A stretch of DNA of 50,538 nt from Rickettsiales bacterium (GTDB lineage Bacteria; Pseudomonadota; Alphaproteobacteria; Rickettsiales; UBA1997), in NCBI GenBank assembly GCA_031268035.1, contig JAIRXW010000027.1, positions 1 to 50,538 on the forward strand. Direction: 5' to 3'. Every line of letters starts with the position of its first letter. Position 1 is the first letter of the stretch. The translations under genes and the position numbers were made by a program. Below the pieces are notes generated by a model, which saw only the letters and a program-made list of their open reading frames with translations, made no database searches and was not told the DNA's origin. Shown piece by piece: positions 1,216 through 45,600 of this stretch.

Positions 1216-3657
1216 ATGAATCCGGACTTGAAAATTACTAACAGCCAATCTAACAGCGTCGATCCAAAGTTTGGAACCAAAAATTTTACGGTCGCCATCA
1301 TCTGTGGCGGTCCATCTCTAGAAAGGGGGATTTCTCTAAACTCCGCTAGATCTGTGCTAGATCATTTGGAAAACAAAAATGTGACAGTAAAAATATTGTA
1401 TGTTAACCCAAATTTGAATTTCTTTATCTTGGATAAAAAGCAGTTGTATTCGAATACTCCCTCGGATTTCGACTTTAAACTACTAGATTCTAGCGCCAAT
1501 CATCTTTCCGAAAAAAATTTTATAGCTGAATTAAAAAAAACAAACATAGTTTTTCCTCTCATCCATGGAAGCTATGGGGAGGACGGAGGTATCCAACAAC
1601 TTCTCGAAGATAATGCCCTGGCCTTTATCGGCAGCGGCAGTGCATCCTGCAGGTCTGGTTTTGATAAAATAGAGGCCTCAACAATTTTAAGTAAAAATGG
1701 TTTTTATGTTTTCCCCTCCGTACATTTTAAAGAAAATAGGGAGGAAAATGTAAAAATTATAGAGAGATTTTTTAAATTAAATAATCTCAGAAAGGCCGTG
1801 GTTAAACCGGCCTACGGAGGTTCTTCCATTGGAGTGCACTGCGTATATTCTCCCGATGAGGCCCTATCCAGAGTAAACGCACTATTTAGCCAGAACAATG
1901 CTCCAGTCATACTGGAACCCTTCTGCATAGGACAGGAATTTACCACAATTATTCTTAGAAACGCCAACGGAGGATGCCCAGTGGCGCTGCCGCCCACTGG
2001 AATAGAGATGAAATATGAGAATTATCAAATATTTGACTACAGAAGAAAATATTTGCCCACATCCCGAACAAGATTTCACACTCCGGCCAAATTTAGCGAA
2101 GAGGCGATAAAAAATATAATGAGATACTCCGAAGAAATATTCGAATTATTGAAACTAGAAGATATCGCGAGAATCGATGGCTGGCTATTGAATGATGGGA
2201 GGATTTGGTTTTCTGATATTAACATTGTCGCTGGAATGGAACAAAACAGTTTTGTTTTCCAACAGTCCACAAGAATTGGGATGACCCACAGAGATCTCGT
2301 CGGCTATGTGCTAGCATCGGCCTGCAGCAGATACGGTTTAGCATATCCTAGATATATCTCCGGGGGTAAAACCAGAAAGAAAGTCAATGTTTTATTTGGC
2401 GGTTCCAACGCAGAGAGGCAGATTTCTCTGATGAGCGGCACAAACGTCTGGCTGAAACTATTAAAATCTGAGAAATACTCTCCAAAGCCTTATTTTTTAG
2501 ATAAAAATGGCGATGTTTGGTATTTGCCCTATTCCTATGCCCTTAGCCACACGGTAGAGGAAATATACGATAATCTCCTGGAAACAGAGGAGATAGACAA
2601 AAAAACGAATCAAAGGCTAGTCGATGAGATATGTTCCAGACTAGATATTTCCCCGGGACAGAGCATAGAAACTCCAATCAGATATTCATTCGACAGGTTT
2701 GTAGCGCTGACAAAGAAGGAGAAGGCCTTCGTCTTTCTGGGGCTGCATGGAGGGATCGGCGAGGATGGAACCCTGCAGAGAAAGTTTGATGAAAATGGAC
2801 TGAAGTACAATGGCTCGGGGGAACAGGCCTCAGGTCTATGTATGGATAAATATGCCTCCGCCAAAGTCATCGAAAATCTTAGAGACGATGTTCTGACTGC
2901 TCTACCAAAAATAAAATTTAATCTCGATGATTTTAAAAATTTTTCCCGAGAGGACTATGCAAATTTTTTAGAGAAAATGGAAAAGAAACTCGGCTCCAAT
3001 AGTTTTATTCTGAAGCCCCGCAGCGATGGCAGCTCAGCTGGCATAGTGGAAATTTGCAACGCCAATGATCTTATAAATTACATAGATCTGCTGAAAAACG
3101 GTATTTTGTTCATACCCCCTCGTACCTTTAAAGGACAAATGGGCATAGTGGAAATGCCAAACAACAGTGCCCAGGATTTTTTACTGGAAAACTTTATAGA
3201 GGCGGATAAATTGATAATTAGAAACAATGACATAGTGCGGCAGGAAATCGACGGCTGGATTGAATTAACCGTTGGTATCCTAGAACACGGCGGGATCTAT
3301 CATTCACTGAGTCCGAGCATAACGGTGGCCGAAAGTAAAATTCTAACTCTAGAGGAAAAATTCCAGGGAGGAACTGGTGTTAACATCACGCCTCCCCCGA
3401 CGGAAATAATTAGTGCCGAGTTTTTGAAAATAATTAAACTAAACATTGAAAAAGCCGCGCGGGCACTAGCCATAGAAAATTACGCTAGACTTGATGTGTT
3501 TGTTAATCAGAAAAAAAATAAAATACTCTTCATCGAAGCAAATACCCTGCCGGCTCTGACCCCCTCTACGGTCATATTCCACCAGGCCCTCAGAGAGAGG
3601 GAGCCTCTGGTCCCAGAGAAATTTCTAGAGAAGCTCATTGAAATGAAAAATTTCTAA
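1216..3657 (+). CDS. ddl: Tandem double D-alanine--D-alanine ligase (two complete Ddl/ATP-grasp modules in one 813-aa ORF)
   Basis: Module 1 (aa ~24-375) has VAIICGGPSLERGISLNSA, PLIHGSYGEDGGIQQLLE and WFSDINIVAGMEQNS. Module 2 (aa ~388-813) has VNVLFGGSNAERQISLMSG, LGLHGGIGEDGTLQ and LFIEANTLPALTPST. Confidence 0.85.
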   Translation: MNPDLKITNSQSNSVDPKFGTKNFTVAIICGGPSLERGISLNSARSVLDHLENKNVTVKILYVNPNLNFFILDKKQLYSNTPSDFDFKLLDSSANHLSEKNFIAELKKTNIVFPLIHGSYGEDGGIQQLLEDNALAFIGSGSASCRSGFDKIEASTILSKNGFYVFPSVHFKENREENVKIIERFFKLNNLRKAVVKPAYGGSSIGVHCVYSPDEALSRVNALFSQNNAPVILEPFCIGQEFTTIILRNANGGCPVALPPTGIEMKYENYQIFDYRRKYLPTSRTRFHTPAKFSEEAIKNIMRYSEEIFELLKLEDIARIDGWLLNDGRIWFSDINIVAGMEQNSFVFQQSTRIGMTHRDLVGYVLASACSRYGLAYPRYISGGKTRKKVNVLFGGSNAERQISLMSGTNVWLKLLKSEKYSPKPYFLDKNGDVWYLPYSYALSHTVEEIYDNLLETEEIDKKTNQRLVDEICSRLDISPGQSIETPIRYSFDRFVALTKKEKAFVFLGLHGGIGEDGTLQRKFDENGLKYNGSGEQASGLCMDKYASAKVIENLRDDVLTALPKIKFNLDDFKNFSREDYANFLEKMEKKLGSNSFILKPRSDGSSAGIVEICNANDLINYIDLLKNGILFIPPRTFKGQMGIVEMPNNSAQDFLLENFIEADKLIIRNNDIVRQEIDGWIELTVGILEHGGIYHSLSPSITVAESKILTLEEKFQGGTGVNITPPPTEIISAEFLKIIKLNIEKAARALAIENYARLDVFVNQKKNKILFIEANTLPALTPSTVIFHQALREREPLVPEKFLEKLIEMKNF

Positions 3658-31822: not shown

Positions 31823-32623
31823 ATGGAATTTACAAACAATTTAAAACTTCCACTGCTAGTTCCGAACCAGTCTGGTAAAGAATTCACCCACAACGAGGCT
31901 CTTGTGATACTGGACAACCTTCTCCACAGCGGTGTTAAAAACACACTTAATGGACCACCGCCGGAGCCAATGACAGGTGACAGATACCTGGTCGGTCCAG
32001 AAGCGACCGGAGATTTCCTGGGAAAAGAAAATTCCATAGCTTTCTACGACAATGGCTGGAGATTTATTATTCCACCCCCGGGGCAACTCATTTGGAATCT
32101 GGCTCTGAGTAAACTCTATGTGTTCAATGGGGCCTGGAGTGAAGCCGTTGTTAATTCTAGCAGCGGAGAGGAAACCGCATTTGATCTAAATTTTACCTTC
32201 GACGAGCCCCAGAACGGCGATACCCTCATCTACAGCGGCGGTAAATTTGTCAATGATGCTGCACTGCAAACTTTTGCCACTAAAGACCTAGCTAATGTGA
32301 CTGGCGCCGCAAAGAATCTTATGGGAAAAATGTCTCTGCCATCGAATCAATATATAAATTTAACTGCCGAAAGCAGTGGCAGTAGTTACACGGCCCCGGC
32401 CGATGGCTATCTAAACATCACCGTCCGGGCAACTTCGGACAATGCCCAGGGTAGACTGCAGAATACAAGTAGTCTAATGGTCAACCAGTGGTTCATTGCA
32501 AAAATAAACTATTACGCCTCAGCGTTTATGCCCTGCTCCGCCGGAGACCTGGTGCAGTATTTTTATCAATCCCAAAGTGTTACAAAATTTACCTACCACT
32601 ATCTCATTGGAAACAATAATTAA
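31823..32623 (+). CDS. Phage tail-fibre-like protein with a DUF2793-type N-terminal domain
   Basis: NLKLPLLVPNQSGKEFTHNEALVILDNLL...PPPEPMTGDRYLVGPEATGDFLGKENSIAFYDNGWRFIIPPPGQLIW...LYVFNGAWSE matches the L-x-L-P...Q-x-x-K-x-x-T-H-N-E-A-L-x-x-L-D...G-x-x-Y-x-V...G-x-W-x-F pattern of that family as I recall it. Confidence 0.65.
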   Translation: MEFTNNLKLPLLVPNQSGKEFTHNEALVILDNLLHSGVKNTLNGPPPEPMTGDRYLVGPEATGDFLGKENSIAFYDNGWRFIIPPPGQLIWNLALSKLYVFNGAWSEAVVNSSSGEETAFDLNFTFDEPQNGDTLIYSGGKFVNDAALQTFATKDLANVTGAAKNLMGKMSLPSNQYINLTAESSGSSYTAPADGYLNITVRATSDNAQGRLQNTSSLMVNQWFIAKINYYASAFMPCSAGDLVQYFYQSQSVTKFTYHYLIGNNN

Positions 32624-42689: not shown

Positions 42690-45600
42690 TTAATTTCCCC
42701 ATCTAACGATAACCGTTGCCACACCTGAATTTGCATCGTTTGATCCTCCGCAACTGGTTATATTACAGTAGCCAGAACCGCCGCCACCACCGCCATAGGA
42801 TACACATCTTTCGCCCGATAGGGTCGCAACCCCACCAGTATGGAGGAGGGCCGAACTGCCCGCAGCACCGCCCCGGTAGCCGCCTCCTCCGCCACCGCCG
42901 CACCAGACAGATTGGTTAGGAGCGCCCTTGGCATTTCCTCCGTTCATCCCACTGCCGTTAGCGCCACAGCTATTAGTGCTGGTACCCGCAGAACTAGTAT
43001 TAACATCACAGTTTGCACAAGCATTACTGGCATTAGCAGTAGTACCACCCCCACAGGAAAAGTAACAATTATCATTGGTGGCCCCTGACCCTCCTCTGCC
43101 ACTACCACCACCTCCATATCCTCCATTATGATTGTAAGAATTACCGCCTCCGCCTCCGCCAGCCACCACCAATGTTGTACTGCCACTGTAGACTGCCGCG
43201 TAGTTACCTCCGGCGCCCCCCCTTGCTGTGACATAGCCGGGCGCCGTGCATAGACCGCCGGCTCCTCCGCCGGCTATGGTTACAGTCAGAGTTTTGGCCG
43301 AAGAAGAGGTGTAGCTGTACGTCCCCGTTGTGTAGCCACCATACCCGCCTCTGCCACTTGTTACGCCATCTGTCTGGCTCCCCGTGCCGCCGGCGGATCC
43401 CCAGGCCTGTATGGTTATTTTTTTCACACAGGCGGGTATGGTGATGTCGCCGGAGGATGTTCTGGTCACATAACCGTTCTCGCAGCACTGGCTATCGGTG
43501 TTGCTTAGACTCCACGCTCCCTTTGAACATGTCAAGCTCGCTTTTCCGCTGCTAGCATAGCTCGTATAGCCACTGGCACAGGAAAATTCAACGGTGGCCC
43601 CGCCGCTAGTGGCTCCGGTGGTTGCCACGGCTTTGAAGCTGGTCACAGCGCTGTTTTGACATGGAATTTCACGACAGCTGACTTCGTTGGTGCTCCAGGT
43701 GCCCTGGCTGCAGGTTTTGGTCACCGTCGAACCTGTGGGTTCATAGCCACTGCTGCAGGTGAGGGTGGCCACGGAACCATGTTTCTGTGTGTTTGTGTAT
43801 GTCCAGGTGCCATTGGCAACGGCAGTCACAGCGGCGCAGTTTTTATAGCAGGTGGCCGTTGTGTCGTAGGTCCAGGCGCCGCCGCTGCAGGTGCCCCTTC
43901 GGCTGGTGTCTGGTAAAAGACTGTAGCCGCTGCTGCAGGCGAGGGTGGCCACGGAACCATGATTCTGTGCGTTTGTGTACGTCCAGGTGCCATTGGCAAC
44001 GGCAACGGCAACGGTACAGTTTTTGTAGCATGTTCCCACCCGTTTCCAGGCGCTATTCTTGCAATAATAGTAATAGTTCCAGCTTTTGCCGCCACAGGCG
44101 CTGGCCTCACAGTCTCCTCCGGCGGCAGATTCTAGATAGCCTGTCTGACATTCTGCATTAAGAAACGAGCTATCTACAGTAAACAGTGAATTTCCCATCG
44201 CTGTGGTGGGGGTCACCACTAGACCGGAATTATAAAAATACCCGCTGTTTTCTATGGTGGTGCCACTGGAAATAGTGAACTTACCTCCTGTCACAAGTGC
44301 GGGCAATCCGCTGCAGCCCTGGTTGCAGGTGCTTGGCTCGCTGTCCCAGTTGCCTTCGACACATTTGCGAACACCGGAGGAACCAGTAATTCCATAGCCG
44401 CTGCTGCAGGTGAGAGTGGCCACAGAACCATGTTTTTGCGTATTTGTGTAGCTCCAGCTTCCCTTAGCCGGATTCGAAATGACCGCACAGTTTTTATGGC
44501 AGACTCCAATCTGTTTCCAACTGCTGCCATTGCAGTAGTAGTAGGGCCAATGTTCACTGTCACAGTTTCTAATGCCACAGTTGCTCTCGTCGTTGAATTT
44601 TGAGTAGCCCTCGTCACAGACAAAATTCAAAATTGATCTATTTGCCGAGAACAGATTCTGGGGATTGTCTGGGAAGGGCTGTGAGTCTGAACCCTGGGTA
44701 TCATAGAAATTTCCAACGTGCTCTATGATAGTATCCTGGTTAATCAAATTAAAACTGGCTCCAACTAGAAGTTTTGGTAGACCAACGCACCCGGGGATAC
44801 AGCTGACAGAGCTTACACTCCAGGTGCCATTTTCGCATTGGCGTACATTTGGACTGCCACTGAATCCATGACCACTGTCACAGGACAGCACTGCCTTTGC
44901 ACCGTGATTTTTGCCCTCGGGATAGCTCCAGAGGCCATTTGGCATACTCTCGATGTCGGAGCAATTTTTGTAGCAGGCGCCCTCGCTGTATCTCCATTGG
45001 CCAAGGTGACAGTACTGAGTTACATTGCCGCTGTAACCGCTAGAACAATTGAATGTCTTGGTTCCACCAGAACCTGTGATCCCACTTAAATTTGAAGTGT
45101 CTATATTGTAGCTGATTGAATCACTGTCTCTGGTGAGTAGTTCATTATTTTGGCAAGGGTTGGCATTACAGAAACCGCTTTTTACAGACCATTTTTTATC
45201 TTGCCCACAAATATATTCCACTTGTCCCTCCATACCCCCGGATAGAGTGTAGCCAGCGGCACATTGCCTGCGCACAGTCATGGATATTCCATAATTCTTA
45301 GGAATTATTTCCATCTCACTTTCCTCAAAGACGCAATTATTGTCTCTAATTATTTTTCTAAGATCACCACTGGTGCAATTATCCAAAGGAGTAGCAATTC
45401 GTTCAAAATTACTGCCACCATTTTTACACAGGGAATAGGTTTCGGGGCCAATTTCAAGGCAGGGATTTATCTGTTCCCTTTCTTCGGGATCATACCAATC
45501 TCCCCAGCATATTCTGGCAAAACCGTTGCCGTCGTTATATTCTTCAGAATCGAGAGTGTTGATTTCTGTTATTGCATCCTCCAATTTGTCCGAAGACACA

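Follow-up and report, generated by a model that had tools for sequence, protein, structure and literature searches.

In a 50,538-nucleotide stretch of DNA from a Rickettsiales bacterium (GenBank assembly GCA_031268035.1, contig JAIRXW010000027.1; the whole stretch is referred to as the window), a single uninterrupted open reading frame (ORF) of 1884 amino acids at positions 42690-48344 of the minus strand combines tandem Sushi, or complement control protein (CCP), modules with an N-terminal hairpin of the VirB2/TrbC pilin type and two glycine-rich domains. With moderate confidence, its product is read as a modular, disulfide-rich envelope or surface fibre, or adhesin, which would be built on a type IV secretion pilin module and possibly be mounted by a type IV secretion system (T4SS). 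The carrier is probably a host-associated, alphaproteobacterium-like organism. The homologues show that the layout of pilin hairpin, CCP modules and glycine-rich domains is a conserved family architecture and not a one-off.

The Sushi/CCP modules in this bacterial gene are genuine and far above chance. The whole protein matches the Pfam Sushi profile (PF00084) at 90 bits (E 1.3e-25) in six stretches. When the modules were delimited at their C-x3-C linkers and scanned singly, the five that a first-pass annotation of the same DNA had named, within window positions 43485-44975 (aa 1124-1620 of the ORF), each exceeded the cut-off of 20.7 bits (37.5, 32.1, 21.8, 29.8, and 25.9 bits). The metazoan consensus described there (some 60 aa, four Cys, C-x2-G-[YF] around the second Cys, and G-x-W ahead of the fourth) is borne out by an alignment of 15 modules, in which C3 and C5 are long forms of 100 aa. 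A repeat of 110 nucleotides is common to modules C4, C6, and C7, the DNA identity to the C7 copy being 87% for C6 and 74% for C4, and one of the homologues (P0040) ends with a long module homologous to C5. A phmmer search against all Protein Data Bank (PDB) sequences placed factor H CCP2-4 first (2qfg, E 2e-15), followed by CR2, DAF, vaccinia VCP, and beta2-glycoprotein I (beta2-GPI). An AlphaFold2 model of aa 1126-1625, built from nine family sequences, had a mean predicted local distance difference test score (pLDDT) of 71.6, with blocks of 75-89 over C2, C4, the long C5, C6, and C7 and poor confidence in the C3 insert and C8. In Foldseek comparisons with the PDB, the top 50 matches of this model were exclusively CCP arrays (CR1 9e-15, CR2 1e-13, factor H, beta2-GPI, factor XIII-B, DAF, and CD46), and the region is therefore predicted to adopt the beta-sandwich CCP fold.

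Further modules lie between the hairpin and the first glycine-rich domain. Six divergent units (N1-N6) are parted by C-x3-C linkers like those of the C-terminal array and have the common skeleton C-x2-G-[YF] ... C ... G-x-[WF] ... C. In the Pfam Sushi scan the best of these N-terminal modules reached 15.2 bits, under the 20.7 cut-off. Profiles of the N modules derived from 20 aligned homologues were compared by hhalign with a Sushi profile built solely from animal SVEP1 modules, which gave probabilities of 92% for N3, 84% for N4, 76% for N6, 62% for N2, 15% for N1, and 7% for N5; none of the 30 column-shuffled controls reached the real score of any of the six modules. An AlphaFold2 model of aa 30-690, built from eight sequences, had a pLDDT of 75.0 (70-89 in the modules), and its Foldseek matches were again CCP arrays exclusively (beta2-GPI 4e-9, factor H, DAF, and CD46). 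By profile-profile comparison and predicted fold, N1-N6 are thus CCP-like, which upholds the suggestion of more divergent versions at aa ~124-690. The skeleton, the hhalign results, and the predicted fold together bring the total to about 15 CCP/Sushi-type modules: six divergent, six canonical or near-canonical, and three variants. Across the 20 homologues no aligned module lacks any of the four core Cys, with the exception of N1 in P0052, where Cys I and Cys III have been lost together (YCYC); extra local Cys pairs also tend toward joint loss across homologues. Both observations would fit, indirectly, the I-III and II-IV disulfide pairing of CCP modules.

The first glycine-rich domain, of the type found in ALK and LTK, lies between the two sets of CCP modules and the second ends the protein. 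Pfam reports PF12810 in two stretches of the 1884-aa protein, and the score of the second domain with Gly_rich_2 (PF21722) exceeds the cut-off of that family (24.3 bits; scores in Table 1). As in the ALK/LTK glycine-rich domain (PF12810; 7lrz, 7mzy) and bacterial homologues named "glycine-rich protein", an ordered series of poly-Gly motifs is present, whereas no TNF-like partner domain was identified in the protein here. Polyglycine-II lattices form the receptor-binding tip of phage S16 gp38, and a role of the glycine-rich domain as a binding "head" would fit this precedent.

The domain assignment of the first-pass annotation is thus right, and it had been made without the link to the N-terminal pilin hairpin, which alters the functional reading. 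The hairpin is preceded by a leader with a basic n-region, a hydrophobic core, and S-S-A|Y; TrbC/VirB2 propilins bear leader peptides of this kind (PMC2653234). Against Pfam TrbC (PF04956, cut-off 27.9 bits) the hairpin scores 25.0 bits within the whole protein, under the cut-off, and 28.3 bits, just over it, when aa 1-123 are scanned alone. TrbC was found in all 13 large homologues scanned, at 22.0-37.7 bits, under the cut-off in seven. The hairpins of four giant homologues align around "...CY.LD.ITG..GRAI.A.....G......G....", with a sharply conserved junction motif, N-[KN]-[YF]-S-C, after helix 2. An exhaustive search of 1.84 billion representatives with the profile of these four retrieved 431 proteins (67 at E below 1e-10), which fall into three classes: large proteins with a single hairpin, proteins with 3-9 tandem hairpins, and ordinary proteins of 110-150 aa (E about 1e-9). 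Two of the small retrieved proteins (120 aa) are strong Pfam TrbC members, at 64 and 62 bits, and one tandem form carries nine Pfam TrbC repeats at 315 bits. The top two PDB matches of the hairpin profile are both Agrobacterium tumefaciens VirB2 (8exh and 8cue; E 0.12 and 0.26), with the whole mature pilin aligned (VirB2 residues 58-114), and aa 41-115 are modelled as helices in the aa 30-690 model. It appears that the TrbC/VirB2 assignment holds up despite the marginal Pfam score. The tandem forms may be described as "polypilins": P0009 (L033 10001-12385), P0011, and P0015 are single ORFs with 5-9 tandem VirB2/TrbC hairpins, and that of L033 lies among unannotated genes, near a phage-portal-like gene.

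The hairpin is flanked by Cys61 and Cys124. Both are present in 100 aligned hairpins and just one of them in 8, and this co-occurrence is interpreted as a disulfide clasp, which would take the place of the cyclisation of VirB2/TrbC pilins. Pilin topology places both ends in the periplasm, and the 1,760-aa C-terminal chain would therefore be exported, which agrees with its 90-odd cysteines. Compared with known VirB2/TrbC pilins (PF04956; A. tumefaciens VirB2, RP4 TrbC), the hairpin shares the leader, the two hydrophobic helices, the short basic loop, and the conserved Gly pattern. On the other hand, the known pilins are about 70-120 aa when mature, polymerise as such, and are cyclised, whereas the module here continues into the 1,760-aa chain, is flanked by the conserved Cys pair at the site of that cyclisation, and occurs without T4SS genes nearby (within the window). 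Owing to its size of 1884 aa, the protein cannot be a standard repeating pilus subunit, and it is classed as a carrier of a pilin-family module, not as an ordinary pilin. With regard to other routes to the surface, lipoprotein anchoring was rejected, as there is no lipobox (S-A-Y-C) and that Cys is not kept in P0013. Export signals of type IX, type V, and type I secretion systems were rejected by reading of the sequence, with no dedicated search; the C-terminus is the last strand of a glycine-rich domain (compare "GFARICWG", which ends domain 1).

Relatives of the protein were found in uncultured bacteria. At the level of 50% identity clusters, 23 other representatives match aa 120-690, and 20 of the 23 are colinear; the complete layout is thus shared by at least 20 clusters. 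P0013 (GCA_031287725.1) is 42% identical over 1,200 aa; P0040 and P0019, both 32% identical, are colinear through the hairpin, N1-N6, glycine-rich domain, and Sushi modules. Pfam TrbC, Sushi, and ALK_LTK_GRD occur together in P0019, P0013, P0040, P0042, and P0052, TrbC and Sushi in P0008 (11 repeats, 330 bits), P0055, P0044, and P0018, and TrbC with the glycine-rich domain in P0027. The carriers comprise human gut metagenome contigs (Hadza, Nepal) and several metagenome-assembled genomes, with GC contents from 26% to 50%; the assemblies GCA_025998795.1, GCA_949021165.1, and GCA_951800555.1 are among them. The family was found by exhaustive profile search alone: word-indexed homologue searches returned nothing new, whether the query was a three-module piece or aa 120-690, a scan of genome contigs with the protein gave no match, and a scan of metagenome contigs with the family alignment matched no relative. 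The few phylogenetic clues probably point to Alphaproteobacteria: a DUF2793 gene in the window, DUF2155 and gene transfer agent (GTA) genes that adjoin relatives of the giant gene, and a DnaB scan, in which all matches were distant and the best was an uncultured alphaproteobacterial single-cell genome at 42% identity. Genes for eukaryote-type Ser/Thr protein kinases also occur near family members (three in a row at L027 1-4229; L037 3725-5089) and would suit carriers that live in association with a host.

The C-terminal part is plastic among family members. P0013 ends after C2, and a decayed Sushi fragment in another frame lies at L027 13462-13734 ("...DSAATLSCSTGYVEVQ..."), which suggests that the 3' end of this gene has been truncated or has decayed. 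Downstream of P0042 (L031 5118-9861), two stray Sushi/glycine-rich ORFs (380 aa and 270 aa) alternate with mobile-looking genes, namely those for a DUF4143 ATPase, a Fic protein, and a HigBA-like pair; these ORFs would be the remnants of a longer gene that has decayed, or else spare cassettes.

Two loci offer a circumstantial link between the family and type IV secretion. P0030 lies directly downstream of a 1,991-aa gene with a TrbL/VirB6 domain (L038 3811-9786; domain at aa 1356-1558), which is reminiscent of the vir genes of Rickettsiales, reported to be scattered over the chromosome as "islets" and not to form one operon (PMC2653234, PMC7648143). A small Cys-clasped pilin paralogue is encoded 3.6 kb from a virB2-B3-B4-B6-B8-B9 operon. 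Several observations weigh against a link to T4SS. For TrbC, the score in Pfam is marginal; the PDB matches to VirB2 (E 0.12) are non-significant taken alone. T4SS genes were absent from the 50-kb window in Pfam scans and, among the 10 distinct family loci examined, from the flanks of 9, and tblastn of the virB operon proteins against all family loci gave nothing except the VirB6-like gene of L038 itself. Moreover, the subunits of a helical pilus cannot all bear an appendage of 1,760 residues, and incorporation would therefore be sparse or terminal; such incorporation is undocumented in the literature searched, which, including a 2025 review of T4SS (PMC12857230), describes no VirB2 fused to large extracellular domains. 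T4SS-dependent display of the protein is a plausible hypothesis.

Several known systems may serve for comparison. The extended VirB6 paralogues of Rickettsiales, which reach more than 4,000 aa (PMC7648143, PMC2653234), are likewise core membrane subunits of a T4SS with a very large extension fused to them, and the 1,991-aa protein of L038 resembles them; here, however, the subunit is VirB2 and the extension consists of recognisable extracellular modules. Patescibacteria have arrays of diversified VirB2-like paralogues on the chromosome (PMC12857230), but these pilins are small, and a fusion of pilin with CCP and glycine-rich domains is unmentioned in that review. The role proposed for the present protein, contact with target cells via a T4SS filament, is that of pilus adhesins such as the tip protein VirB5 and Helicobacter pylori CagL, which are separate proteins, whereas here the adhesin would be covalently fused to the pilin. 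A more specific version, in which the T4SS pilin is itself the adhesin, a VirB2 paralogue with a stalk of about 15 CCP modules, two polyglycine heads, and a disulfide clasp in place of cyclisation, carried on a VirB-type pilus or channel of host-associated, alphaproteobacteria-like bacteria, is put forward tentatively.

Among the alternatives, the hairpin could have been co-opted simply to anchor the protein in the inner membrane; the product would then be a scaffold or sensor of the periplasm or envelope with no T4SS contact. The housekeeping neighbours and the lack of adjoining T4SS genes, both in the window and in most relatives, would agree with such a role, as would the marginal TrbC membership by Pfam. 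A CCP module is usually 3-4 nm long, however, so that about 15 of them in tandem with two heads would far outspan the periplasm; the features of the hairpin, including the Cys clasp, are common to small genuine pilins beside virB operons, and one family member (P0030) adjoins the giant VirB6-like gene. The anchor explanation is thus considered somewhat unlikely. It is improbable that the product is a fibre or matrix protein set free by cleavage behind the hairpin, for instance close to the invariant N-K-Y-S-C, with the chain passing into the envelope or medium and the pilin module acting only as an export or targeting prodomain. Such cleavage would have a precedent in the N- and C-terminal processing of VirB2/TrbC pilins (PMC2653234), and the junction motif after helix 2 is sharply conserved; on the other hand, Cys124 co-occurs with Cys61, which fits a structural clasp more than a cleavage site, and no protease gene is conserved beside the family loci.

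The origin of the modules bears on the remaining alternative. The first-pass annotation had taken the Sushi domains as a sign of host mimicry or horizontal acquisition and had proposed a phylogeny of the modules against eukaryotic CCPs. In a maximum-likelihood tree of 48 modules, which were chosen with a hidden Markov model seeded from the 1884-aa protein and in which the animal sample consisted of two SVEP1 proteins, the 21 canonical bacterial modules formed one clade (98/95) apart from the 26 SVEP1 modules, with lineage-specific sub-clades; C8 alone was unplaced. Recent acquisition from a host is unsupported by this tree, and the module expansions are lineage-specific and intragenic. The identity to animal SVEP1 is 23-24%, a level of remote homology, and phmmer searches of the PDB revealed neither a near-identical match nor a likeness to any single complement regulator beyond the generic CCP consensus. 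The GC content at third codon positions (GC3) of the homologues tracks that of their own genomes, from 0.13-0.15 in AT-rich carriers to 0.63 in the carrier with 50% GC, which argues for long residence.

Codons 1200-1600 of the giant gene (window 43668-44504) have a GC3 of 0.53-0.63. This is higher than in 14 genes nearby (0.33-0.47) and in the gene's own initial 1,200 codons (0.35-0.46), and the rise coincides with recently duplicated Sushi modules. It may represent a recombination tract from a higher-GC relative, and since the genome of the closest relative has a GC3 of 0.63, exchange between bacteria would account for the local rise too. Because the architecture is conserved, GC3 tracks the genomes, the modules are monophyletic, and the identity is remote, recent capture from a host and complement mimicry are unsupported: of the earlier proposal, the domain in a bacterial gene stands and the mimicry or recent horizontal acquisition does not. 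The CCP modules would instead be an old, vertically evolving, and internally duplicating part of the bacterial family and not a recent copy of a host regulator; an ancient transfer, in either direction, might still have taken place.

The protein has much in common with the CCP arrays of animals (factor H, CR1, CR2, DAF/CD55, beta2-glycoprotein I, and SVEP1) and with poxvirus VCP/SPICE, namely the module length, the four-Cys plus Trp consensus, the C-x3-C linkers, the tandem order, and the predicted fold. It differs from them in being bacterial and pilin-anchored, in having glycine-rich domains inside the array, and in the inserts and predicted third disulfide of many modules. It is very unlikely, in view of these comparisons, that the array derives from an animal host and imitates complement regulators, as poxvirus VCP/SPICE do, to shield the bacterium from complement: the best solved-structure matches are indeed factor H, CR1/CR2, DAF, and vaccinia VCP, and the canonical Sushi segment exceeds the neighbouring genes in GC3, but besides the low identity to SVEP1, the monophyly of the bacterial modules, and the coincidence of the GC3 rise with recent duplication, the modules are part of an architecture that bacteria with genomes of 26-50% GC have conserved, the codon composition matching in each case, and the array lies between pilin and glycine-rich domains, which are present in no complement regulator.

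Returning to the favoured reading, a fibre or adhesin on a pilin module, a general scheme may be proposed as follows. Briefly, the protein would be exported by Sec, and its hairpin would enter the inner membrane in the manner of a pilin, with both ends periplasmic. Cys61 and Cys124 would then clasp the ends of the hairpin, replacing the head-to-tail cyclisation of VirB2/TrbC, while the oxidising periplasm would allow the C-terminal chain to fold and to form two disulfides in each module. The pilin module might allow a VirB-type machine to take the protein into, or onto the tip or side of, a pilus or channel, from which a CCP stalk of some tens of nanometres could expose the glycine-rich heads on the outside, where they would act as an adhesin toward a partner or host cell.

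The giant gene is set in an ordinary Gram-negative chromosome. dnaB, dnaN, recF, and an hda-like gene are convergent toward its 3' end, and mreB, mreC, PBP2, a phosphate porin, recR, and others are found farther away in the window. Its GC content is 48.6%, compared with ~40% for the window, and a scan for promoters and terminators around the gene gave signals no higher than the shuffled expectation. Eukaryotic contamination was ruled out by the bacterial flanking genes, the single ORF under translation table 11, and bacterial homologues in similar settings. The flavodoxin-fold gene upstream is a neighbour kept in the closest homologue, a statement of position only: the same 195-aa gene lies directly upstream of P0013 (L027 9389-9976), and in more distant relatives lgt or other genes take its place. 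The coordinates of the features are listed in Table 1.

Table 1. Features of the giant gene and its upstream neighbour (window coordinates; aa, residues of the 1884-aa protein)
Feature	Position	Strand	Basis and remarks
Complete gene for the 1884-aa protein, in order: signal peptide, VirB2/TrbC-like hairpin, CCP modules N1-N6 (divergent), glycine-rich domain 1, CCP modules C0-C8, glycine-rich domain 2	42690..48344	-	Intact ORF and Pfam domains
Predicted Sec signal peptide, aa 1-25 (MGRISLR / FLLHLVVSLALLLPF / SSA, followed by YC)	48270..48344	-	Judged by eye from the sequence
VirB2/TrbC pilin-like two-helix hairpin, aa 41-115	48000..48224	-	Pfam TrbC, family profile, PDB VirB2, model; invariant Cys61 and Cys124 on either side
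N1-N6, divergent CCP-like modules, aa 124-678; extra local Cys pair in some	46311..47975	-	Skeleton, hhalign, model, Foldseek
Glycine-rich domain 1 (ALK/LTK type), aa 704-945	45510..46235	-	Pfam PF12810, 101 bits; PDB ALK ectodomain 7lrz, 7mzy, E 1.5e-4
CCP modules C0 (aa 988-1061) and C1 (aa 1062-1126)	44967..45383	-	Single-module Pfam scan, skeleton alignment; C0 19.9 bits, borderline; C1 no Pfam match, same skeleton
Canonical Sushi C2, aa 1126-1184	44793..44969	-	37.5 bits; pLDDT about 80
Long CCP variant C3, aa 1184-1284, with ~40-aa insert and extra Cys pair	44493..44795	-	Skeleton alignment, no Pfam match; insert of low model confidence
Canonical Sushi C4, aa 1284-1342	44319..44495	-	32.1 bits; pLDDT 85-88
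Long CCP variant C5, aa 1342-1441, paralogue of C3, with ~40-aa insert and extra Cys pair	44022..44321	-	Skeleton alignment, no Pfam match; pLDDT 84-89
Canonical Sushi C6, aa 1441-1501	43842..44024	-	21.8 bits
Canonical Sushi C7, aa 1501-1559	43668..43844	-	29.8 bits
Sushi C8, aa 1560-1622	43479..43667	-	25.9 bits; low model confidence; long branch without firm placement in the module tree
Glycine-rich domain 2, aa 1632-1878	42711..43451	-	Pfam Gly_rich_2 PF21722, 26.8 bits (aa 1626-1884 scanned alone)
Flavodoxin-fold (Flavodoxin_2 / FMN_red) gene, 195 aa	48371..48958	-	Pfam; 26 nt upstream of the giant gene, same strand

Some other genes of the window, all on the plus strand, may be mentioned. 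A MORN-repeat protein (at least four repeats, 80 bits; 49177-50538) runs past the end of the window and is divergent from the flavodoxin/giant-gene pair. An 813-aa ORF (1216-3657) is a tandem double Ddl, that is, two complete D-Ala-D-Ala ligase units in which the N and C domains are each matched twice. A DUF2793 protein (31823-32623; 75 bits) lies amid housekeeping genes, phage or GTA genes being otherwise absent from its vicinity, and a 752-aa ORF (19546-21804) has no Pfam match at E<=0.001.

Sushi/CCP arrays are textbook modules of animal immunity and adhesion, and here they appear as an integral part of a conserved bacterial family, together with a pilin module and the glycine-rich domain of ALK receptors. 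"Eukaryote-like" domains in bacteria should accordingly be read with caution, and not as recent host mimicry, unless the whole family has been viewed. If the fusion is displayed by T4SS, it would represent a new route to target cells, in which the adhesin is covalently joined to the pilin, as opposed to a separate tip protein. If the pilin is itself the adhesin, CCP/Sushi and ALK-type glycine-rich domains would be long-standing bacterial modules for cell contact, and the direction in which these "animal" domains have travelled would be reopened. In either case, the family may offer a handle on how poorly known, probably host-associated bacteria of the gut and other metagenomes contact their partners.

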